NCBI RefSeq assembly: GCF_008000775.2 | Contig: NZ_CP042905.2 | Coordinates: 210,001 to 242,000 of the forward strand | Direction: 5' to 3' | Source of the DNA: Promethearchaeum syntrophicum | GTDB taxonomy: Archaea; Asgardarchaeota; Lokiarchaeia; Sigyniarchaeales; Promethearchaeaceae | DNA length: 32,000 nt | In this document: positions 14,417 through 32,000 of the stretch, one piece after another | Position numbering within the stretch: the stretch's first letter is position 1 | How the letters are laid out: each line of letters starts with the position of its first letter | Notes under the pieces: model-generated | Seen by the model: only the letters and a program-made list of their open reading frames with translations | Databases searched by the model: none | What the model was told of the DNA's origin: nothing | Translations under genes and position numbers: made by a program

Positions 14417-15763
14417 TTAAATCTGCATTTTTTCAAGAGCTTTATTTCTTTCTTTAGTAAAACTCTTAATTTTTCCTGCATCTCCAGAAATTTCAGCAAG
14501 GTTAACCGATCTACTATAAAGATTGTAGGCTTCTTCATATTTGTGCTCTTTATACAATTTATCTCCTTCTATATTCACTTCTTTGGCTAAATTCAAGCAT
14601 GCTTTCTTATATTCTTCATTATATTTCTTTAAAAGGGTAGTATTATTTGCATTTTTGATAATTTCTACAGATTTTCTATAACTTTGTGCAGCTTTATCAA
14701 AATTTTTTTGTTTCATAGCGACATCCCCCACATTATTGACTTCTTTTGCCCATTTATCAATACTTTTCTCGAATTCAAGTTTAAAATTTTTGATGAGCTT
14801 TTTATTTTTGGATTCTTCTGCTAGTTCTACGGATTTAAAATATAATTCAGCAGCTTCTTCAAATTTCTTTGCTTTGAATAGTTTATCTCCTTGGTCATTT
14901 ATGCTTTGTGAATATTTTTCAAAGGATTTGTCCATTTCTTTTGTAAAATTATCAATCAATTTTTGATTTCCAGCATCTGTTGCAATATTAACACTTTGTG
15001 CGTATAGACTCGATGCTTTTTCAAAATTTTTTTGTTTCATATAATTATCGCCCATAGAATTTATTTTTTGAGCGTGATCTGAAAATGCTTTAAAGAGTTC
15101 TTTTTTAAATTCTTTCTTGAGTTTACTGTTATCAGATCTTTCGATTAGACGAACAGATTCAGTATATCGGTCAATGGCTTCTTCAAATTTCTTTTCTTTG
15201 TATAAAAGATCACCTTCTTTATTAACTTCTTGAGCCCACCTCTCGTATACAGTTAATTTTTTATGAATGAAGGATTTGCTCATTTTTTCGTCAACATCAA
15301 TTTTTACAATATCGCAAATTTCTTCATATTTTTTTCTTGCTTCTTTCCATTCACCTGATTTAACAAATTTTTCTGCTTCATCTTCAATTATTTGGGCATA
15401 GGCAATTTTAGATTTGTTTAGTTCTTTTAGGAATGACTTTCCAAGTTTCTTCATCCATTTTTCACCAGCATTTTGAAGAAAATCCCAAGCACTTTGATAA
15501 ACTTCTATAGCTTCTTGGTATTTTTTTTGTTTAAATAATTCATCTCCCTTTTTATTTAACTCTTCTGACCTTTTTCCAACTGCTTTATCAAGTTCTTGTT
15601 GATATTCATCAACTATCTTCATTTTCCCTACTGTTTTCATAAGATTAACCGATTCTACATATAGTTTGATCGCTTCTGTATAATTTTTTTTTTTATATAA
15701 TCGGTCGGCCATTTTGTTTACATTTTTTGCTTCCTTCTCGATTTCACTTACCATTTTTATCAC
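14417..15763 (-). CDS. TPR-like helical repeat protein (eight ~54-residue repeats)
   Basis: The unit recurs as A.EVN..GD.L[YF]K.KK[FY]EEA...Y..SV.L........L.K.F..E..K. The last five copies are spaced exactly 54 aa apart (residues 178, 232, 286, 340, 394). The start is either GTG 15763 or ATG 15754. Confidence 0.7.
   Translation of the reverse strand: MIKMVSEIEKEAKNVNKMADRLYKKKNYTEAIKLYVESVNLMKTVGKMKIVDEYQQELDKAVGKRSEELNKKGDELFKQKKYQEAIEVYQSAWDFLQNAGEKWMKKLGKSFLKELNKSKIAYAQIIEDEAEKFVKSGEWKEARKKYEEICDIVKIDVDEKMSKSFIHKKLTVYERWAQEVNKEGDLLYKEKKFEEAIDRYTESVRLIERSDNSKLKKEFKKELFKAFSDHAQKINSMGDNYMKQKNFEKASSLYAQSVNIATDAGNQKLIDNFTKEMDKSFEKYSQSINDQGDKLFKAKKFEEAAELYFKSVELAEESKNKKLIKNFKLEFEKSIDKWAKEVNNVGDVAMKQKNFDKAAQSYRKSVEIIKNANNTTLLKKYNEEYKKACLNLAKEVNIEGDKLYKEHKYEEAYNLYSRSVNLAEISGDAGKIKSFTKERNKALEKMQI
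14420..15736 (-). repeat. Intragenic tandem repeat, about 162 bp period (eight diverged copies)
   Basis: This is the DNA-level counterpart of the 54-aa protein repeat above. The copies are diverged, so periodicity is clearer in the protein than in the nucleotides. Confidence 0.6.
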
Positions 15764-20510: not shown

Positions 20511-21815
20511 TTGGGGGCAAATAAAATAAGCGATTCGAATGTACCGTTCAAAATTAGGTGTTCATTTTGTGGAGATTTAAATGAATTTTTGAAAGATGAC
20601 TTATATGATGTAATAAATGGAAAAGAGCAGTTTCGAAAAAAATTTTGTTTAGAATGTGGTGAACCACTCGTATTAAACTGCCCTAATTGCAATCATAAAT
20701 TTCTATTGGGAATAAATTTCGAAAATAATCATTTTTTCAAAGTTCTTAATTCATTTTGGGATCCTACACCTTCTCTTCTAGATATTTTAATCCCAAATTC
20801 TCAAGAAACTTTGAAAATTTATAAAAATCTTGCTAATACATTAACTTCAGATTATTTTCGATTAAACCGAAAAGAATTCTTATCCAAAATGCCTGAAATA
20901 AAAGAAAAATTGGAAAATGTGAAGAAAATTTTAGAAAAATTTCAACCTTTTTTAAAAACTCAAGATTTAGATAAGAATTATAAAAGAGTGAATAAAGAAA
21001 TTTTATCAATTCTAAATGATATAACAAATATTTTAAATGATATTGAAGAAGGTAAAGGAAACGATATTCCTTTTTGGATAAATGAAAAAAGAGAGAAAAA
21101 ACTATTGAAACAAGTTCCTTTTCTGGATTTTTATAATATTATGGAAAATTTTATAGATTTAATTAAGCAAATTCGAGAAAATGAAATAAAATTAGAGCAG
21201 GAATCTTTAAAACCGGGTTTTAACAAAATTGAAAAATATGTAAAACAAGATCCTGAGTTTTATCGCGCAATTTGTCCTGTCTGCAATACAACAATATATC
21301 ATATTACTCATCAAGTATATATTCAAAATAAAATTGATAATAAATTGAAATTTATTGAAGAAATCTTTAAAGTTAATGAAGAAGAAGCAGAGAATTCAGA
21401 TACTCGAACGATACGATTTGATGTAAATGTAAATATCGAAAAATCTATAAAATTTTCTTTTCATGGTCAGCTAATTTTATTACTACATGAAAATACTCCA
21501 TATAAAATTGGAAGAGATCTGTTGAGGGATATTGATTATGAAGAAAAAGCTAGTCAAGAAATATTATTTGATGAGGATGACCCATTAGCTCGTGTTTCAA
21601 ATAGTCAGTTTACTTTAACTAAAAAAGGAAATAATATTATACTTGAAGGAATGAAATACGATGAAGGTCGCGTTGGGACATTTCTAAATACGCTAAATGA
21701 TGATATTAGGATAAAAGATCCTAACGGTATAGAAATTCAACCAGGATCAACAATTTTTATCCCATTAGTAAAAGAGAATAATAATTCTAATCAAATTAAA
21801 TTAATTTTATTGTAA
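20511..21815 (+). CDS. Multi-zinc-ribbon, coiled-coil protein with degenerate FHA-like C-terminus
   Basis: It carries CSFCGD...CLECGEPLVLNCPNCNH (three CxxC pairs), a Lys/Glu-rich central region, CPVCNTTIYH, and the C-terminal YKIGRDLL...ARVSNSQFTLTKKGNNIILEG. The start is TTG; there is no in-frame ATG before the first zinc ribbon. Confidence 0.7.
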   Translation: MGANKISDSNVPFKIRCSFCGDLNEFLKDDLYDVINGKEQFRKKFCLECGEPLVLNCPNCNHKFLLGINFENNHFFKVLNSFWDPTPSLLDILIPNSQETLKIYKNLANTLTSDYFRLNRKEFLSKMPEIKEKLENVKKILEKFQPFLKTQDLDKNYKRVNKEILSILNDITNILNDIEEGKGNDIPFWINEKREKKLLKQVPFLDFYNIMENFIDLIKQIRENEIKLEQESLKPGFNKIEKYVKQDPEFYRAICPVCNTTIYHITHQVYIQNKIDNKLKFIEEIFKVNEEEAENSDTRTIRFDVNVNIEKSIKFSFHGQLILLLHENTPYKIGRDLLRDIDYEEKASQEILFDEDDPLARVSNSQFTLTKKGNNIILEGMKYDEGRVGTFLNTLNDDIRIKDPNGIEIQPGSTIFIPLVKENNNSNQIKLILL

Positions 21816-21846
21816 ATTTTATAAATTATAAAGAAGAGGACTTTAA

Positions 21847-23388
21847 ATGACTGAAGAAAGCAAAACATTATATTTCTGTTCAGAATGCATGCATATTTAT
21901 TATAAAATACCCTCTAATAATCAATGTGCAATATGCCATAATGAAATGAATGTAGAAGATAGAATATTACCTTCCTCTTTGGATATCTTTACTTGTGAAA
22001 CTTGCCATACTCTTTACTCAACTCAGAATTTTGAGGATTTAATTCCAACAAACATAGAAAATAAAAATTTTTTGTGTGCGTGTAAGCATCATTGTCCTAC
22101 AAATGCATTATTACAAATTGGGAAAGAAGAAGCATATATAGGAAATATTGTAATTGCAGATATCTTTAATTGTTCTAATTGCGGAGCGATTTCTTATCGT
22201 AATCCAGATAATCAACAACGTAGTTGTGCTGAATGCGGTTCTCGATTTGTAATACCTTTAAATTGGGATCCAAAAACTCAAAAAACATTTTTTAGTTGTG
22301 CAAATAAACAAACTCATGGGATTCGTCTTAAAATAAGGGATCTTATCCTAAATAATAATAAAATAATATCTGAAGAAATAAAAAATATAAAAGTAAAAGA
22401 AAAACAATTGCAAAATCAGTATGAACAGCGAAGAGCGCGGATTATTACGAATTTTGGTAAAAAAAAAAAAAAACTTGAAAAAGAAATTAATTCTTTAAAC
22501 TTATGGGCAATCGAACAGCGTAGAGAAATGTATAATTACTTACGCCCAATTGGTCTACGTTGTACTGTATTTAAAATGGAAAAAGAAGAAAATAAAATAT
22601 TATATAAGAAAACGAATGATGGATGTGGAGCTTTAGCTCATTTAAAAATTAGAAAAATAATTCTTGCACCTGATGGTACAGTAATTGATAGAGCACCCCC
22701 TAAACCTGATGAACCAATTATAGAAGAAACTGAAACACCTAAAATAATGCATGTTGATCAACTAACCTTAGCACTGAAAAACACACCAATGGAACCACTC
22801 TCTAATAATTTATCTCAAACAAATTTATATGAGAAGCAAGATATTTTTAAAAAGATTACTAGTACTGACGATAAAGAAAATCAATTATTTAATTCATTAC
22901 CAATCTTAAAAGATGAGCAAATTTATATTAAAATTGGGCTCTATTCTTTAAAATATCTTTCAGATAAAGTAAAAAGGATTAATAGTGGAGTAATTCCAAT
23001 AAAAATAAAAAAAGATATTAATGAATTTAAAATCGGAAGAGAACAAATTATTCGTGCTTATTGGACTGATATTGAGTTGTTTAAAGAAAATCCTCTAATT
23101 TTTGATTCTCTAACTAAAGTATCTGAAAATTCAGATCAATTTCGCTTACAAAAAGATTCTGAAGGATTTTTTGTCTCTCCAGGAGAAAATCAAATAAATA
23201 AAATCTTTTATTCTTCTGATGATGAGAATTCAGATATCATTGAATTAACAACTCCCATGTCCTTAAACATGATTAAGGCTTTGTATTTTTATACATATTA
23301 CTCTTTTGATAAAGAAAATGTTGGAATGGATCATCAATTTATTTTTAAATTATCTATAGCCCTTCCAGAATCAAGTTTAACAACTTAA
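21847..23388 (+). CDS. Multi-zinc-ribbon, coiled-coil protein with degenerate FHA-like C-terminus
   Basis: It carries CSECMH...CAICH, CETCH...CACKHHC and CSNCGA...CAECGSRF, then a Lys-rich coiled-coil-like segment. The C-terminus has FKIGREQII...KVSENSDQFRLQKDSEGFFVSPG. A good RBS (gaggac) lies before the ATG. Confidence 0.7.
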   Translation: MTEESKTLYFCSECMHIYYKIPSNNQCAICHNEMNVEDRILPSSLDIFTCETCHTLYSTQNFEDLIPTNIENKNFLCACKHHCPTNALLQIGKEEAYIGNIVIADIFNCSNCGAISYRNPDNQQRSCAECGSRFVIPLNWDPKTQKTFFSCANKQTHGIRLKIRDLILNNNKIISEEIKNIKVKEKQLQNQYEQRRARIITNFGKKKKKLEKEINSLNLWAIEQRREMYNYLRPIGLRCTVFKMEKEENKILYKKTNDGCGALAHLKIRKIILAPDGTVIDRAPPKPDEPIIEETETPKIMHVDQLTLALKNTPMEPLSNNLSQTNLYEKQDIFKKITSTDDKENQLFNSLPILKDEQIYIKIGLYSLKYLSDKVKRINSGVIPIKIKKDINEFKIGREQIIRAYWTDIELFKENPLIFDSLTKVSENSDQFRLQKDSEGFFVSPGENQINKIFYSSDDENSDIIELTTPMSLNMIKALYFYTYYSFDKENVGMDHQFIFKLSIALPESSLTT

Positions 23389-23409
23389 GATTCAAACTGG
23401 TGAAAAATT

Positions 23410-24285
23410 ATGAGTGATGATGAAAACAAAAAAATAAAAATTTGTAGAAACTGCCATTCCATTTATAAAAAATTATCACAAAAATATTGCGGAAATAATT
23501 GCCAAAATGAACATCCATTCTTAATTGATGGAAAAATCAATCAAAATATTGAAACTCGCGAATTAATTTTATCAATAAATGAAAAAGGGATAATTAGATG
23601 GATATGTATGGGCTGTCATAAGGAATATTCTTCAGATAATATCAATGGAAAAGATTTTGTTTGTAGTTGTGGTTTAAAAAATCAACTTTATCCTTTCACA
23701 ATGAAAAGTTGTGCGAATCCTGGTTGTAAAAATGACGATAATACATATCATAATCTACCAATTGATGGAAAAGCTTGTGAAATTTGCGGGGAAACAAAAT
23801 TTCAATTAAATGGCAATAAATTGATTTCTAGTTTCCTATATTATGATGAAAAAAAAATAGAAACCCCAGAATCTTTCAAATTCAATATTAAACATCATGA
23901 TGAAGATAAGTCGAAAAATCTACCTTCTTTAACATTTACCATACTAAATAATAATCTTGAATATATTTTGTATGGTGAAAATAAATCAATTACTATGAAA
24001 GATATAATTAAAGACTCAATGGGATTTATTCCTGATAATATTTATGAGAAATTACTAGAAAAATATACAGATGAGAAAGAAATTTTCAATATCTCATATA
24101 ATGATGAAACTGAAGAATTTTCTTTAAAAAGTCTTTTAGAGTTTTCTGTTAGTGAACTAGATCCAAGATATCAACCGAAAAACATAGTAGGAACCTGGAT
24201 TTCAGGAAGTGAAAATGTTATTCCAGAAAATATTTTATTTGAATTGAATACAGATTTTTTTAAAATTCACATATGGGCATATTAA
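23410..24285 (+). CDS. Multi-zinc-ribbon protein (no recognisable FHA)
   Basis: It carries CRNCHS...CGNNCQNEH, CMGCHK...CSCGLKN and CANPGCKN...CEICGETKF. The C-terminal half is acidic and lacks a GR motif. A ggtga RBS lies before the ATG. Confidence 0.65.
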   Translation: MSDDENKKIKICRNCHSIYKKLSQKYCGNNCQNEHPFLIDGKINQNIETRELILSINEKGIIRWICMGCHKEYSSDNINGKDFVCSCGLKNQLYPFTMKSCANPGCKNDDNTYHNLPIDGKACEICGETKFQLNGNKLISSFLYYDEKKIETPESFKFNIKHHDEDKSKNLPSLTFTILNNNLEYILYGENKSITMKDIIKDSMGFIPDNIYEKLLEKYTDEKEIFNISYNDETEEFSLKSLLEFSVSELDPRYQPKNIVGTWISGSENVIPENILFELNTDFFKIHIWAY

Positions 24286-24298
24286 GGAGAAGATAAGA

Positions 24299-25630
24299 AT
24301 GTCGACATTAAAACCTAAAGACAAATTACAATTGAAAAACAAGTATGAAATTATTGAAGTTATTGGTGACGGAGGATTTGGAACAGTTTTTTCTGCCAAA
24401 AATACAAAAAATGGAGAATTAGTAGCAGTAAAACAGTTTAAACGCGAGGCTTTTTCTTCTACAGCAGAATGTCGAATGTATTGGGAACGTGAAGTCAAAT
24501 TAACTGAAGCAGTTACTGGTTATCCCGGAAAGCATATGGGTTTAATTGATTCAAAAGAAGATAAATCTGATCGCAGCAATCCAAAATTCTATATTGTATT
24601 AAATTTCGTAAAAGGTATTACTTTAAAATCATGGTTTAATGATAATTTGCGTTCGGCTAAGCCATTGGGAGTAGATGAAATTATCAAAAAAATATTCCTA
24701 CCTTTATGTGACTACATGGATTTTGCACACAGAAGAGGTGGGATTCATAGGGATTTTACATTCAATAATATTTTAATTGTAACTGATCAGATGACGCAAG
24801 ACATTTACCCAATTACTATCGATTGGGGAGGAGGAAGAAGTTTCGATCCTTCAACACTTGAAAAAGAAGCCCCTTTAATTGATGAAATGGAGGGCTCTGG
24901 AACAGTTATTATAACACCTGGTTTTTTTGCTCCCGAAATAATTATGCAAAAACCTCCTTTACCACAAACAGACATATATATGTATGGGGCAGTTTTATTT
25001 TATGCGTTAACAAATGGATACACGCGTGTTAAACCTACAATCTCATCTGATTATATTTTACACCCACAAGATTACAATATGAATGTTAGTGATACATTAA
25101 ATGATGTTGTTGAGAAATGTACGGAATATGAACCGAAAGACAGATTTCGAACATTTGCCGACATTAAAACTTCATTAGAACAGCATCTCTCAGGAGAAAT
25201 CGGAGGATTAGATAGATTACCCTCTATTGAAACGGGAAACTCTTTTATTCTAAGAATTGCAAATAATAATGCAATAATTCAATTGAATCCTTTAGAGATA
25301 GCTTTAGAAGATGGCAAAAATCTTCGAATTGGTCGTGAGTTAATGATTGAATCTGCAGCTTGGAAAGAAAGCTATAAAGGAGTATTTAGAGGAATCACTC
25401 GATGTAAAATTAATGATGAAGATCGCCCACGCGAACAATTTTTTATAGGATATAGTAAGAAACAGAATATTTTTTATATTCATGAGGGGCGAAATTCAAA
25501 TCCAACATCATTAAACGGAGAAAGATTGCCTCCAAATCAATGGGTTCCTCTTCAAGCAAACGCCCAAGTATCAGTTTCAAGTACAACGGTAAGAGGATCG
25601 TTTGAATTAATCTCTGTATTAGATTTATAG
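24299..25630 (+). CDS. Hanks-type Ser/Thr protein kinase fused to a C-terminal FHA-like domain
   Basis: The Gly-loop is IGDGGFGTVF, the catalytic Lys is in VAVKQF and the catalytic loop is IHRDFTFNNILI. DWGG stands at the DFG position, and FFAPEII, DIYMYGAVLFYAL and KDRFRTF follow. The C-terminus has LRIGRELM...REQFFIGY...NPTSLNGERL. A strong RBS (aaggag) lies upstream. Confidence 0.85.
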   Translation: MSTLKPKDKLQLKNKYEIIEVIGDGGFGTVFSAKNTKNGELVAVKQFKREAFSSTAECRMYWEREVKLTEAVTGYPGKHMGLIDSKEDKSDRSNPKFYIVLNFVKGITLKSWFNDNLRSAKPLGVDEIIKKIFLPLCDYMDFAHRRGGIHRDFTFNNILIVTDQMTQDIYPITIDWGGGRSFDPSTLEKEAPLIDEMEGSGTVIITPGFFAPEIIMQKPPLPQTDIYMYGAVLFYALTNGYTRVKPTISSDYILHPQDYNMNVSDTLNDVVEKCTEYEPKDRFRTFADIKTSLEQHLSGEIGGLDRLPSIETGNSFILRIANNNAIIQLNPLEIALEDGKNLRIGRELMIESAAWKESYKGVFRGITRCKINDEDRPREQFFIGYSKKQNIFYIHEGRNSNPTSLNGERLPPNQWVPLQANAQVSVSSTTVRGSFELISVLDL

Positions 25631-25639
25631 ATAATATGT

Positions 25640-26488
25640 TTGGTAATGAAAATGAAAAAAAATCAATTGGATTATGGAATTATTTGTGATGTTGGTGGAA
25701 AAAGAAAAGGTAATCAAGATAGTTTGTTTTTCTCAGAATTTGATTTAATTATTGCACCAGGATCTCCTGATTCAAAACAATTCTCATATAAATCAATATT
25801 AGCAATTATCTGTGATGGGGTATCGAGTAGTTTAAAGGGAGAGAAAGGGAGTAATTTTGTAATTCGACATTTAGCAGCTAAAATTATTGGCGATCTTTAT
25901 ATTCATAATTTTTCCATCAGTGAAGAATTAAATAAAATCCAAGAATTCATAAATCAAACGAATTTTGAATTAATAAACGAATTCAAAGATCTGAAAAACA
26001 CACCCCAAACAACTCTAGCAGGATTTCTAGTTATTGGTCAATGGTTATGGTTGTTTAATTTAGGTGATAGTCGAATTTTTATTGTGAAAGATGGAGAAAT
26101 TAATCAAATATCCGTTGATCATATTGGTACGAGCGCGTCACATGAAATAACTCAATCAATGGGACTTAGTGAAATCAAACCTGAGTTAAAAATCTTTAAT
26201 TGGGCTTACCAAACAAAAAATGATGAAAAAAAGATTTCCTACACAGAAAAATACTATATTCTTGCTTGTTCAGACGGTTTAACCGATAGAGTCACGAACA
26301 GCGAGATTAATGAAATACTTAATGACCAGTCAAAAAATGAAGGAATCCAAGAAAAGGTAGAGATTCTTTATAATTTATCAATGACACGTGGTAATGATGA
26401 TAATATTTCAATCATTGCTGTTGATCTATCTAAGTATTTCGACTCAATTTCTATAATACAAAAAATTAAACTTCAATACGAGGGATAA
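25640..26488 (+). CDS. PP2C (PPM) family Ser/Thr phosphatase
   Basis: The PPM motifs are GKRKGNQDS, ICDGVSSS, NLGDSRIF, CSDGLTD and DDNISIIAV. Start candidates are TTG 25640 or ATG 25646/25652. Confidence 0.85.
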   Translation: MVMKMKKNQLDYGIICDVGGKRKGNQDSLFFSEFDLIIAPGSPDSKQFSYKSILAIICDGVSSSLKGEKGSNFVIRHLAAKIIGDLYIHNFSISEELNKIQEFINQTNFELINEFKDLKNTPQTTLAGFLVIGQWLWLFNLGDSRIFIVKDGEINQISVDHIGTSASHEITQSMGLSEIKPELKIFNWAYQTKNDEKKISYTEKYYILACSDGLTDRVTNSEINEILNDQSKNEGIQEKVEILYNLSMTRGNDDNISIIAVDLSKYFDSISIIQKIKLQYEG

Positions 26489-26491
26489 ATA

Positions 26492-27613
26492 TTGATATCA
26501 GAACATAATGAGGAACCAATGTTGGAATTCTTTGATTTAGGAGATTCAACTCAATTTAAAAAAATCGATCTTGAAATAGTTCAAGAAATTGAAGAGAATT
26601 CCCGTTCTATTAGCCCGATTATTTTTGAAATATTTGAAAAATTAATGAAACAATGTTTAAAAGGATACAATTTTACAGATGAGCAAATTTCCTTTGTTGA
26701 ATATTTGGAATTTTATCAAGAGGTAAATAGATTAATACCAGAACTAAAAAAAAAGATAATTACTGAAGATTGTTACAGTAGCGTTTTTTATATTGGGGAT
26801 ACTCATGGAGCCATTCAGGAAAGTTTTAAGATTGTAGATTTTTTCTATAAATTATTTCAAACTAATAAGCAGATAAAAATAATCTTTGTAGGAGACTATG
26901 TAGATCGTAATCCTTACGATCTTGAAAATCTGACCCTGATCACGTCATTTCATCTTTTATTTCCAAAAAATGTCTTTCTTATTAGAGGAAATCATGAAGA
27001 TCGTTTAATTAATACTCATTATGGCTTCATAGATAATTTATTAAGAGCTTTTAGAGAAAAAGGGGAAGAATTATATGAAGAAATAATCAAATATTTTACT
27101 CATCTTCCTCTTGTTCATATTGCTCAGATGCATTCAGGAGATAAATTAGCACGAGTTATGGCAGTTCATGGCGGGATTCCAATAGATCCGTTAAATTTCC
27201 TTGAACCCGCAATTTTGGAAGACATCGAGCCTAAATTGAAATGTGAGGTAGATAAGAGTGATAAAATGGATGTTTATTCAGTAAGTATGCTTTGGTCAGA
27301 TCCTGATGATATGATTCAAGGCATATTAACTGGAGCCCATTTACATGGTAGAATGAGATTTGGATTTCCAGTATTTAAGAGTTTCATTCATGCGAATAAT
27401 ATTCAGTTAGTCGTTCGAGGTCATCAAAAATGGAATAATGGGCATCATATATTCTTTGGGGGGCAATTATATAGTCTATTTTCTACACAAACTTATGACG
27501 GTAAAATAAAATTTGAACCGAAAATACTCAGACTAGATTTCGGTCAAACTCCAAAAATTATTCCAATTGATTTTGAATCCTTAGAAAAAGAATTAATATC
27601 AAATACAAATTAA
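26492..27613 (+). CDS. PPP-family (PP1/PP2A-like) Ser/Thr phosphatase, paralogue 1
   Basis: The PPP motifs are GDTHG, GDYVDRN, RGNHE, VHGGIP, LWSDPDD and VRGHQ. An extension of about 100 aa precedes the catalytic core. The start is TTG 26492 or ATG 26519. Confidence 0.85.
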   Translation: MISEHNEEPMLEFFDLGDSTQFKKIDLEIVQEIEENSRSISPIIFEIFEKLMKQCLKGYNFTDEQISFVEYLEFYQEVNRLIPELKKKIITEDCYSSVFYIGDTHGAIQESFKIVDFFYKLFQTNKQIKIIFVGDYVDRNPYDLENLTLITSFHLLFPKNVFLIRGNHEDRLINTHYGFIDNLLRAFREKGEELYEEIIKYFTHLPLVHIAQMHSGDKLARVMAVHGGIPIDPLNFLEPAILEDIEPKLKCEVDKSDKMDVYSVSMLWSDPDDMIQGILTGAHLHGRMRFGFPVFKSFIHANNIQLVVRGHQKWNNGHHIFFGGQLYSLFSTQTYDGKIKFEPKILRLDFGQTPKIIPIDFESLEKELISNTN

Positions 27614-27622
27614 AAAATATGG

Positions 27623-28837
27623 GTGAATACAATAGTTCCAAATGAATTTGAAGAAGAAAACGAATTTAATGAAAAAACTAGGATAATTGGAGAGCAATCA
27701 TATCAAACACTAAAACCTACTCTTAGTAAAATTATTGAAACACAAACGCAAATGATTTTTGATGGAAAAACTCAGCGATTAGGAGAAACAAAGGAATCTA
27801 CAATCATAGATGAGTTTTGGTCATATTACTCACAATTTTCTTCTGAAAATTTACCATCAGAAGAAATGTATTATGGGAATGAATTTGCAGAATTAAAAAT
27901 AACAATTCTGATACGGATGTTTCAAGATTTCTATTTAGAACGTATTTATCCAATAAGTTTTCCTGTTCCCATCATTCATACATCCTATAGATCATCTAAA
28001 AATAAGAGTAAAAATCCTGCAAAAATGTTCTTTGTAGGTGATACTCATGGATCTTTTTTTGATACAATAAAATTAATTCCATTTTTTGTTAAAGAGATCC
28101 ACAAAGGCGAAGAAAAAGGATATGAAGTAAAAATAGTTTTTATTGGTGATTTTGTAGATCGGGGAAAATTAGATATTCATAATCTTCTTTATATATTAAC
28201 TTTCAACTTAAAATATCAAAAAAATGTGCTTTTACTCCGAGGCAATCATGAGGAGATATCAATAAACGCACATTACGGTTTTGGCACTAGAGTGATGAAA
28301 CATTTTTCACAGCTTCTTTTTGCTTCTTTTAATCATATGTTCAAGGATTTACCATTAATAGCAATTTTCCATTGTAATGAAGGAGGTATTATGTGTTTAC
28401 ATGGAGGAATACCAATAGTTCCTAATATATCTACAGGAGGCTATGAAGTACCCCAATTGAATACATTCCAATTTAATAATCGTCAAGTTTGGATTGATGA
28501 AATGGATGAGGTAACTCAACAGATTTTATGGAATGATCCAATTAGAAATTATGATCCTAATTCTCCGCAAAAATATTTTAAAAGTCGAAGAGGTATAGGA
28601 TTTGTATTTAATCATGAAATTTTTAATGAATTTTGTGTTAAAAATCATGTAAATCTATTATTTAGAGGTCATCAAGTATTTTTAGAAGGTTTTCATAAGC
28701 ATTTTGATAATCGATTTATAACTATTTTTTCAGCGACAAATTACGTAAAAAAGAAAATTGATGCAAGATTTATAGAGTTAGATTCGGGAGATATTTACAA
28801 TTTTAAAGTTCACAGAATTCAAAATTTATCCTCCTAA
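27623..28837 (+). CDS. PPP-family (PP1/PP2A-like) Ser/Thr phosphatase, paralogue 2
   Basis: The PPP motifs are GDTHG, GDFVDRG, RGNHE, LHGGIP, LWNDPIRN and FRGHQ. An N-terminal extension of about 135 aa precedes the core. The start is GTG. Confidence 0.85.
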   Translation: MNTIVPNEFEEENEFNEKTRIIGEQSYQTLKPTLSKIIETQTQMIFDGKTQRLGETKESTIIDEFWSYYSQFSSENLPSEEMYYGNEFAELKITILIRMFQDFYLERIYPISFPVPIIHTSYRSSKNKSKNPAKMFFVGDTHGSFFDTIKLIPFFVKEIHKGEEKGYEVKIVFIGDFVDRGKLDIHNLLYILTFNLKYQKNVLLLRGNHEEISINAHYGFGTRVMKHFSQLLFASFNHMFKDLPLIAIFHCNEGGIMCLHGGIPIVPNISTGGYEVPQLNTFQFNNRQVWIDEMDEVTQQILWNDPIRNYDPNSPQKYFKSRRGIGFVFNHEIFNEFCVKNHVNLLFRGHQVFLEGFHKHFDNRFITIFSATNYVKKKIDARFIELDSGDIYNFKVHRIQNLSS

Positions 28838-28858: not shown

Positions 28859-30484
28859 ATGAGCTATAGTTATGAAATAAAGGATTTTGATGCGGGTGGT
28901 CGAATTGGGAATTTTAAATTGGGATCAAAGAAATTAGATACACCCAATCTATTTCCCGTAGTAAATCCTTTTCAAAATTTAATTTCTCCAAAGGAATTTT
29001 ATAATCATTTCAAAATTCAAGCAATTTTTACTAATGCATATATTATTTACAAAAATCGAGAAAATAACCCCAATATTATTAAAAAAGGATTACATGAACA
29101 TTTGGGGTTTCCAGGAATAATCGCAACAGATTCTGGTGGATTTCAAGATTACATGTATGCGGGGGATATAAAACTTGCTCCTGAAGAAATTGAACCTTTT
29201 CAAGAAAAAATAGGTTCAGATTGCCCAGTTATATTGGATATTCCTGTTCAGACAACAGATCCATATGAAGAAGCAAAAAGAAAAGTAGATATTACAATTC
29301 GACGTGCAAAAGATAATATTTTACGACGTCAAAGAACTGACACTGCATGGTTTGCTCCAATTCATGGATCTATATATCCAGATTTATTGAAAGTTAGTTC
29401 TCAAGAAATGTCAAAATTAGATTATGGAATCTATGCTATTGGTGGAGTTGTTAAGACCTTCATAGATTATAGGTTTGATCTTGATATAGAAATTTTATTA
29501 AATGTTAGGAAATGGATAGATCCAAGTAAACCGCTCCATATGTTTGGACTTGGTCTCCCCAATTTCTTTTCTCTTGCTGTAGCCTGTGGTGCAGATACTT
29601 TTGATTCTGCAGCCTACATACTGTATGCAAAAGATGATCGATATTTCACGTTTACAGGAACTAAAAATATTAAAGATTTAAGTGAATTACCTTGCCATTG
29701 TCCAATTTGCATTAAATATTCTGCCTCTGAAATTCAAAAACTCCCAAAGGATAAACGAACTGAAGTGATTGCACGCCATAATCTTTATCATTCTTTCTCT
29801 GAAATTCGAACAATTAAGCAAGCAATTCGCGAGGGAACCTTATGGGATTTAGTTGAACAAAGAGTTCATGTACATCCCAAATACATTAAAGCTTTAAGAA
29901 AATCAATTGAGTTTCCAGATCATTTTAATCAATTATTAAATATGAATAAAATCAAAGGTCAGAAATTATTGAGCCCTTTTTCATTTTATCGCCCACATTT
30001 ACAGTATTTTCGAAAGAAAATTGAAAATTTTAAAATTTTTCCTTCTAAGAAGATTTTATTATGTGTTCCTGAACTAGATCTTCCAAGTGATAAGGGAATA
30101 TCTTTTGAGGGTTGGAAGAAAGAAATCAAATTAAATCCATATTATGAAGAAATTCAAGTAGTAATAATTAGCAATTCATTAAGTATTATTCCAATTGAAT
30201 TAGCCGAAATTTATCCTGCAGGTCAACATGAAGGATTTGTTAACATTGAACATAAAAAAAAAGAAATATCCATATTATTGAGCACCTTTAAAAAATTTCT
30301 ATCTGAGAATAAAAGTCAATTTAAATTTATAAAAATCTTAATTCCAATTACTTTTGTTAATGAATATCAAGTTCAAGAACAATTCCAACCAAAGAACCAT
30401 TTAATTTATTATATTAAAAATTTGATATCTGAAAATTTTCCAGAGATAAAAACCAGTGTTATTCAAACTATAGAGGAACTCTAA
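28859..30484 (+). CDS. tgtA: Archaeosine tRNA-guanine(15) transglycosylase
   Basis: It has the TGT catalytic motif IATDSGGFQ, the zinc site CHCPICIKY...ARHNLYH (CxCxxC...H), and archaeal-type C-terminal domains with IPIELAEIYPAGQHE. The length is 541 aa. Confidence 0.85.
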   Translation: MSYSYEIKDFDAGGRIGNFKLGSKKLDTPNLFPVVNPFQNLISPKEFYNHFKIQAIFTNAYIIYKNRENNPNIIKKGLHEHLGFPGIIATDSGGFQDYMYAGDIKLAPEEIEPFQEKIGSDCPVILDIPVQTTDPYEEAKRKVDITIRRAKDNILRRQRTDTAWFAPIHGSIYPDLLKVSSQEMSKLDYGIYAIGGVVKTFIDYRFDLDIEILLNVRKWIDPSKPLHMFGLGLPNFFSLAVACGADTFDSAAYILYAKDDRYFTFTGTKNIKDLSELPCHCPICIKYSASEIQKLPKDKRTEVIARHNLYHSFSEIRTIKQAIREGTLWDLVEQRVHVHPKYIKALRKSIEFPDHFNQLLNMNKIKGQKLLSPFSFYRPHLQYFRKKIENFKIFPSKKILLCVPELDLPSDKGISFEGWKKEIKLNPYYEEIQVVIISNSLSIIPIELAEIYPAGQHEGFVNIEHKKKEISILLSTFKKFLSENKSQFKFIKILIPITFVNEYQVQEQFQPKNHLIYYIKNLISENFPEIKTSVIQTIEEL

Positions 30485-30940
30485 ATGAATTCTACAAAAA
30501 AAGTAGAACGTATTTTACTTGATGAATTGATTGCGCGTGGACATCCAAATATTCTGGGAACCCACAGGACAACTATTGAAATAACCACAGAAGATTTTCT
30601 AACAACTAATGGAAATTGCATAATAGGTATTATGAGCTCTAAAAGTGTGAAAGATTATAATCCAAAATTAAAAGAAGCTATTCAAAATGGAAAAAAAATC
30701 GAGATTGAAATGGTTGCAGGTCCATTTAAGGAGATAATTGTTGGAGTGGGGCATAATGAATTGCCTTTATCAAATGAGATTTCAATGGTCTTTCGTTTAA
30801 GTGAATTTATTTCTGATAGAACAGCTCTAATTAATTGTTCGAAATCCTCAATAGAACTTGATAGAAATTTTATAAATTATTTAAAAAATCCATCAAATAA
30901 AATTATTGTTCAGTTTTTTCTTTTAGATGAAAACAAGTGA
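30485..30940 (+). CDS. DUF371-like small archaeal protein
   Basis: ARGHPNILGTHRTTIEITTEDFLTTNGNCIIGI matches my recollection of the DUF371 signature (GH.N..a.H.TT.E.T....lt..GdCIiG). Its ATG directly abuts the tgtA stop (taaATG). Confidence 0.55.
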   Translation: MNSTKKVERILLDELIARGHPNILGTHRTTIEITTEDFLTTNGNCIIGIMSSKSVKDYNPKLKEAIQNGKKIEIEMVAGPFKEIIVGVGHNELPLSNEISMVFRLSEFISDRTALINCSKSSIELDRNFINYLKNPSNKIIVQFFLLDENK

Positions 30941-30947
30941 ATGCATT

Positions 30948-32000
30948 ATGAGTGAAATAAAAAAATGGATCCTTGAGATAGATCTCATTAATGGAAATTC
31001 TATAATAAAGAAACTTCAATCTATAAACGCGATTGATACGAATTTCAAGATTCACTCACAAAACAATTCTATTTTCATTCCTTTAAAGCATGAAATTGAT
31101 AATTTATCAGTACTACTTAATGGGTATGAATTTAAAATTTTTCCAGCTCAGAAAAATAGCAAGAACTTAATAGATCGTAAAAAAACTCATAGTAAATCTC
31201 TCAAAGAAACTCTTAAAGAAATTATCCCTTCTGAATTTCATAATTTGTTACCAAGAGCATTTGATATCATTGGAGATATTGCAATTATTGAATTAAATCG
31301 AGATGAACAAAAGCCTTTAAGACCTTTTATCAATAGTATTGGACAAATTCTGCTTGAAAATCATTCAAATATTAAATCTGTTTATGAAAAAGCCAGTGAT
31401 ATAGAAGGATTATATCGCACAAGAAAATTTGATCTGATTGCAGGATTAAATAAAACTGAAACTATTCATAGGGAAAATTTAGGCAAATTTCATGTAGATA
31501 TTGAACAAACTTTTTTTTCACCAAGATTAGCATATGAAAGACAACGTATCGCTAAACTTAAGACCGAATTCAATTTAAACGGAAAAATTTGGGACGTTTT
31601 TTGTGGTGTAGGCCCATTTATTATCCAAATTTCAAAAAAAAATCCTAAAGCTCACTCTATTGGAACAGATATTAATTGCAGAGCAATTGAATTGGCAAAA
31701 AAAAATATTGAGTTAAATAAAATTGTTGGAAATATCGAGTTTTATTGCCAAGATGTAAAAGAAATTTCGATTTCGCAAGTCTTTTCAAAATTTCAAAATT
31801 CTATCTCCAGATTTATTATGAATCTACCCGAAAAATCCATTCAATTTTTAAAAAATCTCCCCCAGTTTATTCAAAAAAATGGTGCTTTGTTACATTTATA
31901 TCAATTTAATAAAAAAATTAATCCGATTCAAGAAGCTAAAGATATTTTTGAAAAAGAATTGAAAAATACAAGAATTAAATTAAAAGAATATAAATTCTCA
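30948..32000 (+). CDS. trm5: Trm5/Taw22-type tRNA (guanine37-N1)-methyltransferase, 3' end beyond the window
   Basis: I translated this myself; it is not in the ORF track because it has no stop. The product MSEIKKWILEID...AFDIIGDIAIIEL...FFSPRLAYERQRI...WDVFCGVGPFIIQ...FIMNLPEKS carries the FSPRL..ER, SAM-binding D.F.GVGPF and NLP motifs of Trm5. The frame is open for 351 codons to the window edge. Confidence 0.8.
   Translation, partial: MSEIKKWILEIDLINGNSIIKKLQSINAIDTNFKIHSQNNSIFIPLKHEIDNLSVLLNGYEFKIFPAQKNSKNLIDRKKTHSKSLKETLKEIIPSEFHNLLPRAFDIIGDIAIIELNRDEQKPLRPFINSIGQILLENHSNIKSVYEKASDIEGLYRTRKFDLIAGLNKTETIHRENLGKFHVDIEQTFFSPRLAYERQRIAKLKTEFNLNGKIWDVFCGVGPFIIQISKKNPKAHSIGTDINCRAIELAKKNIELNKIVGNIEFYCQDVKEISISQVFSKFQNSISRFIMNLPEKSIQFLKNLPQFIQKNGALLHLYQFNKKINPIQEAKDIFEKELKNTRIKLKEYKFS

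Follow-up and report, generated by a model that had tools for sequence, protein, structure and literature searches.

Multi-zinc-ribbon proteins as candidate accessory subunits of an ArnA/ArnB-like phospho-signalling operon in Lokiarchaeia

Introduction

In the Asgard archaea, which among prokaryotes are the closest known relatives of eukaryotes, Ser/Thr phospho-signalling is almost unexplored. A stretch of 32,000 nucleotides from Promethearchaeum syntrophicum (NCBI RefSeq assembly GCF_008000775.2, contig NZ_CP042905.2, positions 210,001 to 242,000 of the forward strand; hereafter the window) contains three consecutive genes for proteins with several zinc ribbons, here called P1, P2 and P3. They lie between a gene for a zinc-ribbon protein with a canonical forkhead-associated (FHA) domain (ZnR-FHA) and a gene for a Hanks-type Ser/Thr kinase. 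What do these three proteins contribute in such a setting? An earlier note, made from the sequence alone, had placed the three open reading frames (ORFs) on the plus strand exactly where they are found, and had taken them for a locally duplicated family of ribbon proteins, two of which end in FHA-like domains without key phosphate-binding residues.

The answer to which we give slightly better than even weight is that P1, P2 and P3 serve a phospho-signalling module of the ArnA/ArnB type as accessory adaptor or scaffold subunits peculiar to this lineage. The argument begins with the C-terminal domain of P1, continues with the other parts of the three proteins and their conservation as a set, and then turns to the operon around them (Table 1).

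The C-terminal domain of P1

The AlphaFold2 model of P1, built from a family alignment of 12 sequences, is beta-rich from residue 298 to residue 434, with a predicted local distance difference test score (pLDDT) of 70-89. In a Foldseek comparison of this domain with the PDB, the top matches are mostly FHA domains, including those of Far9, Rv1747 (FHA-1), Rv0020c, OdhI/GarA, APLF and ArnA (5A8I), with probabilities of 0.96-1.0 and TM-scores (target) of 0.5-0.62. The 10-11-stranded beta-sandwich of the FHA fold is recovered in these comparisons. When profiles of the C-terminal domains were enriched with orthologues from other genera, hhalign aligned ZnR-FHA with the P1 domain over 93 columns, with 82% probability and E=1.1e-5. 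The two accepted FHA domains of the operon, those of ZnR-FHA and the kinase tail, align with each other less well (E=0.011). The canonical motifs fall in register on P1: Gly-Arg on G334-R335, Ser-Arg on S363-N364, His on Q366, and Ser-Thr-Asn-Gly-Thr on G386-R387-V388-G389-T390, with the C-terminal strands ('G-[DS]-x-I-x-I-P') also in register. As modelled, the C-terminal domain of P1 is an FHA fold that has strongly diverged. The FHA assignments made here rest on fold match, profile-profile alignment, motif register and operon context taken together.

The phosphate site of ArnA and of Rad53 FHA1 is made up of Arg, Ser and Thr (PMC6509490), and in the S. tokodaii homologue of ArnA the residues Arg, Ser, Thr and Asn (the last two being T199 and N200) are each essential for kinase binding (PMC5007285). 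P1 keeps the Gly-Arg of the beta3-beta4 loop, which is invariant and aligned to the GR of its neighbour. In the beta4-beta5 loop, the Ser of the canonical Ser-x-x-His is present as the invariant S363, but the His has given way to an invariant Gln; in the beta6-beta7 loop, R387-V388-G389 stands in place of Thr-Asn-Gly. Across the P1 family G334, R335, R339, R361, S363, Q366, R387, G389 and T390 are invariant, and the loop residues (four Arg, Ser-Asn and Gly-Thr) remain so down to 38% overall identity. Because these loop residues are invariant, the site is predicted to be functional, basic and of altered specificity rather than decayed. It looks re-tuned, not dead.

The earlier claim that key phosphate-binding residues are lacking is thus overstated for P1, in which Arg and Ser are invariant and Thr is replaced by an invariant Arg. 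In both P1 and P2 the GR and a Ser are retained and the His is replaced, as it had described, and the Thr-Asn of the third loop is replaced as well. The Arg that follows the Ser is indeed replaced (by Asn in P1), but it is back in divergent members of the family, which read 'VSRTQ' and so restore the canonical Ser-Arg.

Zinc knuckles and helical domain of P1

Outside this domain, P1 is a protein of knuckles and helices. It has eight Cys, all of them invariant in the family, which are arranged in four CxxC knuckles (17/20, 46/49, 57/60 and 255/258). With only eight Cys in four knuckles there can be at most two Zn(Cys)4 sites, fewer than the 3.5 ribbons first counted. The N-terminal knuckles have sub-threshold Pfam matches to DZR, CpXC and DUF2321. 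The Lys/Glu-rich helical middle that had been noticed in P1 and P2 is borne out in both by composition and by modelled helices; in P1 it is weakly similar to four-helix bundles in Foldseek, e.g., the FAT domain (probability 0.87-0.94). Judging from the arrangement of the Cys, the 255/258 knuckle may pair with an N-terminal knuckle, which would make the helical domain an insert within a zinc ribbon. The AlphaFold2 model of P1 is poor around this fourth knuckle.

P2: ribbons and a degenerate FHA-like domain

The ribbons of P2 comprise Cys 11/14+27/30, 50/53+77/79/83 and 109/112+127/130. Fifteen of its 16 Cys never vary; the exception, C77, is kept in 13 of 14 sequences. A fourth metal site is possible from the conserved residues C151, H157, C239 and C260, all invariant, so the earlier count of about four ribbons stands as three clear ones and a possible fourth. 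The linker that precedes the C-terminal domain is Thr-rich (11% T) and has TP sites.

The C-terminal domain of P2 is modelled with its elements in the same order as in P1: a long hairpin, the 'KIGR' strand, short helices, and a hairpin starting at 'QF'. Its best Foldseek matches in the PDB are the IAD domains of IRF9, IRF3 and IRF4 (probability 0.90-0.96, TM-score 0.3-0.4, root-mean-square deviation (RMSD) 8-9 A), and no bona fide FHA domain is among the matches listed; a comparison of P2 with a viral structure library gave nothing interpretable. IRF IAD and SMAD MH2 domains are classified with FHA in the SMAD/FHA fold group. The ZnR-FHA profile aligns with the P2 domain over 85 columns in hhalign (51%, E=1.5e-4), placing 'KIGRE...A.W' and 'NSDQF' of P2 on 'RIGRD...A' and 'NSEHF' of ZnR-FHA, and the GR-helix and 'NS-x-[QH]-F' segments align with both FHA domains of the operon.

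The residues of the presumed site are less constant in P2 than in P1. G397 is invariant, while R398 is Arg in 11, Lys in two and Gln in one of the 14 sequences. The position of the canonical His is divided evenly, with Gln in seven and His in seven family members; the protein of the window has Gln (Q431) and thus departs from Ser-x-x-His. A hydrophobic residue, I450, stands opposite the phosphate-binding Thr of the third loop. Among the structured parts of P2 this domain has the lowest conservation (0.54), and its loops are poorly conserved. That it derives from an FHA domain at all we consider somewhat probable; if so, it is probably a degenerate pseudo-FHA domain that acts independently of phosphorylation. 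FHA-like ends, as first proposed for both proteins, are upheld for P1 by the FHA matches and the profile alignment; for P2 they are no more than plausible, given its IRF-IAD matches and lower hhalign probability.

P3: ribbons and an additional conserved domain

P3 has the three ribbons that had been counted (12/15+27/31, 66/69+85/87 and 101/106+123/126), and all 12 Cys are invariant. It does not consist of ribbons only, as had been supposed: residues from about 150 to 291 form a Cys-free, conserved region with many invariant residues. This region gives no signal to FHA profiles, to the C-domain profiles of P1 or P2, or to the PDB, Pfam and NCBIfam. By eye, 'VGTWISG...FKIHIW' suggested a degenerate FHA domain, which no profile comparison supports. 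PDB family-profile searches of P3 returned no informative match. For the three proteins as a whole, Pfam gives sub-threshold zinc-ribbon matches only and NCBIfam nothing significant.

CXXCH strings occur in P2 (residues 27-31 and 50-54) and in P3 (12-16 and 66-70), with invariant His at P2 H31 and P3 H16. Multihaem c-type cytochromes were considered and rejected: on inspection, the N-termini of both proteins are hydrophilic and without a signal peptide, and the Cys stand in paired knuckles. The His are read as knuckle-flanking residues or alternative Zn ligands.

Relationships and distribution of the three families

The three proteins are not equally related to one another. The N-terminal ribbons are common to P2 and P3 (BLASTP E=3e-5; hhalign aligns P2 5-131 with P3 6-129 at E=1.5e-4). 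Between P1 and P2 BLASTP finds nothing significant (E=1.2), and the hhalign similarity is weak (E=0.003) and confined to the region of the C-terminal motif; comparison of the two C-domain profiles is likewise weak (E=0.003-0.14). No similarity between P1 and P3 is detectable by either BLASTP or hhalign. As far as these comparisons reach, the relationships are mosaic and ancient, with ribbons common to P2 and P3 and a C-terminal domain common to P1 and P2. The composite motif [YF]KIGR[DE]...VS..S.QF.L, which the earlier note had pointed out in P1 and P2, is found in these two alone among the 6,309 ORFs of the genome (1.56 M residues).

Each of the three has conserved homologues, and wherever the source names an organism, it belongs to the Promethearchaeota (Lokiarchaeia, Asgard). 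Among 400 Asgard genomes, the full-length P1 family is limited to one family-level clade, where it is present in eight of 14 genomes (that of the window included) and four of seven genera; the distribution of P2 and P3 is essentially the same. Named carriers are Ca. Lokiarchaeum ossiferum Loki-B35, Ca. Harpocratesius repetitus FW102 and a metagenome-assembled genome of Promethearchaeum sp., the genus of the window. When 1.84 billion representative proteins were searched exhaustively with the P1 profile, 20 matched at E<=0.001, all of them members or fragments of the P1 family, which on this evidence is a narrow orphan family. There are 18 homologue clusters of P2 and 16 of P3, and the P3 orthologues lie next to P2 in six other genomes. 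One metagenomic protein (P0063, 201 aa) has a transmembrane-rich N-terminus followed by the final 59 residues of a P1 homologue. A chimeric or frameshifted gene call is the most likely cause, and the protein was not accepted as a new architecture.

Across the four genera of this one Promethearchaeota family, P1, P2 and P3 are single-copy, always adjacent and constant in order, with identities of 33-49% between genera. A recent tandem duplication is rejected, since the three are separate orthologous groups at that level of identity, and the idea of a locally duplicated family fails in this recent sense. The similarity expected among all three is found for the ribbons of P2 and P3, is weak and limited to the C-termini for P1 and P2, and is absent for P1 and P3.

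Operon context

The genes of P1, P2 and P3 stand in the order vWA, ZnR-FHA, P1, P2, P3, kinase, PP2C, PPP, PPP, with intergenic gaps of 3-63 bp (21-31 bp between P1 and P2 and between P2 and P3), and this order is collinear in six other genomes and four genera. P1, P2, P3 and the orthologous kinase are jointly present or jointly absent, and the kinase orthologue is seen only in genomes that carry the cassette or on a contig-end fragment (genome G140). Given the complete collinearity and this restriction of the kinase, the operon behaves as a unit. Identities between genera are 69-74% for the vWA protein and the kinase, compared with the 33-49% of P1-P3. The literature searched holds no description of the P1-P3 families or of this operon in Lokiarchaeia.

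Table 1. Features of the operon in the window (positions counted from the first nucleotide of the window; aa, amino acids)
Feature	Position	Strand	Evidence or description
P1	20511..21815	+	434 aa ORF; Zn knuckles, helical bundle, CPxC knuckle, predicted divergent FHA domain
P1 N-terminal Cys knuckles C17xxC20, C46xxC49, C57xxC60	20559..20690	+	Invariant in 12 sequences
P1 Lys/Glu-rich helical domain (aa 85-241)	20763..21233	+	K+E 25%; five helices in AlphaFold2 model, pLDDT 80-90
P1 fourth knuckle C255-P-V-C258	21273..21284	+	Invariant; 195 residues past third knuckle
P1 predicted divergent FHA domain (aa 298-434)	21402..21812	+	G334-R335, S363-N364-x-Q366, R387-V388-G389-T390
P2	21847..23388	+	513 aa ORF; 3-4 Zn ribbons, coiled-coil hairpin, Cys/His mid domain, linker, putative degenerate FHA-like domain
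P2 N-terminal zinc ribbons, three in number (aa 11-130); paralogues of the P3 ribbons	21877..22236	+	Cys conservation, BLASTP, hhalign
P2 K/E/R-rich helical hairpin (aa 163-229)	22333..22533	+	K+E 28%; AlphaFold2 helices 163-203 and 207-229, pLDDT 82-91
P2 conserved mid domain, invariant C239, C260 (H265)	22540..22698	+	Conservation 0.75; low pLDDT
P2 C-terminal FHA-like / SMAD-FHA-type beta-sandwich, putative (aa 352-510)	22900..23376	+	pLDDT ~80-87
P3	23410..24285	+	291 aa ORF; three zinc ribbons and conserved C-terminal domain of unknown fold
P3 zinc ribbons (aa 12-126)	23443..23787	+	12/12 Cys invariant
P3 Cys-free C-terminal domain (aa 150-291), unclassified	23857..24282	+	Conservation 0.86, many invariant residues
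vWA protein, candidate ArnB-like hub, 384 aa	18491..19645	+	Pfam VWA_2 3e-13
Zn-ribbon and canonical FHA protein (ZnR-FHA), ArnA-like, 252 aa	19709..20467	+	Pfam FHA 2.9e-10
Hanks-type Ser/Thr kinase with FHA-like C-terminus	24299..25630	+	Pfam Pkinase 4e-25; FHA 0.026 (sub-threshold)
PP2C phosphatase	25640..26488	+	Pfam PP2C_2 4.8e-9
Two PPP-type (Metallophos) phosphatase paralogues	26492-27613, 27623-28837	+	Pfam Metallophos 1e-16 and 3e-22

The best PDB sequence match of the vWA protein is chain A of 8S05 (E=9.3e-15), which is ArnB of Sulfolobus acidocaldarius, a protein of similar length (387 against 384 aa) that was co-crystallised with the zinc finger of ArnA (PMC12852372). The ribbon of ZnR-FHA has Cys 9/12/23/26, i.e., CxxC-x10-CxxC, which is exactly the spacing of C21/24/35/38 in the ArnA zinc finger (PMC12852372). 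Because the vWA protein has ArnB as its best match and ZnR-FHA has the Cys spacing of ArnA, the operon is classed, from its sequence, as an ArnA/ArnB-like module. Three phosphatases accompany one kinase in all relatives examined, and the two PPP-type paralogues are ~31-34% identical to each other. The FHA-like tail of the kinase has a helix insert after the GR ('RIGRE...AAW') in common with P2 and ZnR-FHA. A paralogous Hanks kinase of 636 aa is encoded elsewhere in the same genome (C1:3147042-3148949). It is 32% identical to the operon kinase, has KIGR[DE] near residue 523 and may be another kinase-FHA fusion; paralogues of 620-690 aa exist in most genomes of the family.

A search for archaellin (PF01917) matched four archaeal control genomes but nothing in the closed 4.32-Mb genome. 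The lack of archaellin in a closed genome indicates that the output of the operon differs from that of the Sulfolobus archaellum network. A defence system was considered and rejected: of the seven operon genes tested, six match nothing in PADLOC and the kinase matches only a generic kinase domain.

Downstream of the phosphatases, on the same strand (28859-31997), are genes for ArcTGT (TGT and DUF5591), DUF371 and a Trm5/TYW2 methyltransferase. In the other genera the collinearity extends to TGT and DUF371; all three genes are probably neighbours, not members of the signalling module. Upstream, on the minus strand (14417-15763), lies a gene for a TPR-repeat protein with an N-terminal match to the MIT domain (6e-11), which in eukaryotes is typical of ESCRT-associated proteins.

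Proposed role and alternatives

In the Sulfolobus module, the zinc finger of ArnA docks on unphosphorylated ArnB, and after kinase action the FHA domain of ArnA binds the phosphorylated helical bundle of ArnB (PMC12852372; PMC6509490). By analogy, the kinase and the three phosphatases of the present operon would control phosphorylation of the vWA hub and of Ser/Thr-rich linkers, and ZnR-FHA and P1 would read the resulting state through their FHA domains. With the Arg and Ser of the phosphate site retained, an invariant Arg in place of Thr and two further invariant Arg in the loops, the P1 domain probably binds a phosphorylated segment, perhaps multiply phosphorylated or acidic, with altered specificity. 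The corresponding domain of P2 would more likely have a structural role or mediate interactions independently of phosphorylation. The ribbons of ZnR-FHA, P1, P2 and P3 (about one, two, three to four and three predicted sites, respectively) would serve phospho-independent docking between proteins, as the zinc finger of ArnA does. Since ZnR-FHA, P1 and P2 share the same order of N-terminal ribbon(s), linker or helices and C-terminal FHA domain, P1 and P2 are plausibly ancient, elaborated duplicates of the adjacent ZnR-FHA gene.

Several results weigh against a set of FHA-derived adaptors. A genome-wide scan with the Pfam FHA model at E<=10 recovers four canonical FHA proteins and leaves P1 and P2 untouched, and PDB family-profile searches give P1 and P2 neither an FHA match nor another informative one. 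Domain profiles have no significant cross-matches among the 6,309 ORFs; there are weak matches in the correct register, with P2 in third place among the ORFs for the kinase-FHA profile (E=2.6) and an FHA protein at E=1.5 for the P1 domain. No intermediates to canonical FHA domains appear among the 1.84 billion representatives searched with the P1 profile. Foldseek E-values for P1 and P2 are all above 0.001 (3e-3 to 7e-2 for P1) with RMSD of 6-9 A (6-8 A for P1), and the models come from shallow alignments of 12-14 sequences, with mean pLDDT of 67 for P1 and 60 for P2. Both the Thr and the Asn equivalents that are essential in the S. tokodaii homologue of ArnA are replaced in P1. Finally, an adaptor role leaves the C-terminal domain of P3 unexplained.

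The alternative that survives best is that the C-domains of P1 and P2 are pseudo-FHA domains that do not read phosphate at all, and that P1-P3 are substrates of the kinase or phospho-independent scaffolds, oligomerising, for example, through their helical regions and beta-sandwiches. The loss of the His and of Thr-Asn in P1, two residues of which (T199 and N200) are indispensable in the S. tokodaii protein (PMC5007285), would be in keeping with this, as would the hydrophobic third loop, the low conservation and the variable R398 of P2; a Thr-rich linker with TP sites is what might be expected of a substrate. However, invariance of the P1 loops down to 38% identity is not expected of a decayed site, and two members of the phosphate triad, Arg and Ser, are still present in P1 (PMC6509490). 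We regard this alternative as unlikely.

The proteins might instead form an output layer, in which the ribbons bind DNA or RNA and P1-P3 regulate transcription or translation under the control of the kinase and phosphatases. Nucleic-acid binding is common among zinc ribbons, RanBP2-type fingers are able to bind single-stranded RNA (cited in PMC6509490), the ArnA/ArnB module affects gene expression in Sulfolobales, and tRNA-modification genes follow the operon. Yet a 2026 study of ArnAB found the zinc finger bound to ArnB, with no direct DNA binding (PMC12852372), P1-P3 match no helix-turn-helix or known nucleic-acid-binding family in Pfam or NCBIfam, and the tRNA genes are probably mere neighbours. 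An output layer of this kind is improbable.

It is more doubtful still that the C-domains are unrelated beta-sandwiches whose FHA likeness is an artefact of low-depth AlphaFold models and a short chance motif: the high Foldseek E-values and RMSD, the negative HMMER-level searches and the weak alignment of P1 with P2 leave room for it, but the majority of the top PDB matches of P1 are FHA domains of unrelated organisms, the 93-column alignment is in the correct register (GR/GR, S/S, Q/H, GT/GT), no other ORF of the genome has the composite motif of P1 and P2, and the operon encodes two other FHA proteins.

The accessory adaptor or scaffold role thus remains the preferred reading of P1-P3. It is tempting to extend it into a stepwise series, from the canonical FHA of ZnR-FHA through the Arg-rich, re-tuned FHA of P1 to an enlarged, helix-flanked sandwich in P2 of the IRF-IAD/SMAD-MH2 kind, with P2 as a prokaryotic FHA-to-MH2/IAD-type phospho-dependent oligomerisation domain (to our knowledge, such domains are so far known only from animals) and the four ribbon-bearing readers as a combinatorial phospho-code hub on one vWA protein, but this is a speculation to which we attach the least credence of all.

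Significance

One conserved operon here combines a kinase, three phosphatases, a vWA hub and up to four FHA-type domains of graded divergence, and so offers a compact natural series for studying how FHA specificity changes or how pseudo-readers originate. If the Arg-rich site of P1 does bind a non-canonical ligand, the known range of FHA recognition would be extended. The practical importance is otherwise modest, with the P1-P3 families restricted to one archaeal family. Ca. Lokiarchaeum ossiferum has been brought into culture and carries the operon, thus phosphoproteomics and heterologous reconstitution look feasible.

Comparison with known systems

The closest counterpart is the ArnA/ArnB module of S. 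acidocaldarius, which works with the kinases ArnC and ArnD and the phosphatase PP2A. Both systems have adjacent genes for a vWA protein and a zinc-finger-FHA protein, and both have Hanks kinases and PPP-type phosphatases as partners. For ZnR-FHA the likeness to ArnA is architectural only, as it has no PDB sequence match at E<0.01. Unlike the Sulfolobus module, the lokiarchaeal operon includes the kinase and the three phosphatases themselves, places the vWA gene before that of ZnR-FHA, and inserts three multi-ribbon proteins between ZnR-FHA and the kinase. There is no archaellin gene here, so the target must differ.

When compared with canonical FHA domains (PF00498; Rad53 FHA1, Rv1747, GarA/OdhI and APLF), the P1 domain shares the beta-sandwich, the Gly-Arg after strand 3, the Ser of the next loop and the Gly-Thr of the third loop; the FHA of ArnA (5A8I) is itself among its fold matches. 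In contrast to these domains, P1 has no Pfam match, replaces His by Gln and Thr-Asn by Arg-Val, and has two extra invariant Arg. It also differs by a helical insert after the GR, which is common to the FHA domains of the operon. IRF IAD and SMAD MH2 domains are larger sandwiches with flanking helices, and the IADs are the best fold matches of the P2 domain, but the TM-scores are only 0.32-0.38, there is no sequence similarity, and those domains are metazoan. The resemblance to IRF IAD may reflect an FHA core with extra elements.

A bacterial parallel is found in Deinococcus radiodurans, where, in the part of the source available, DRA0331-0334 are described as bringing vWA, kinase, FHA and PP2C together in one operon, with no multi-zinc-ribbon or pseudo-FHA proteins described there (bioRxiv 10.64898/2026.01.23.701218). 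The combination of vWA, FHA, kinase and phosphatase is thus well known in both archaea and bacteria. What the Lokiarchaeia appear to add to an Arn-like module is a set of lineage-specific, multi-ribbon adaptors derived from FHA proteins.

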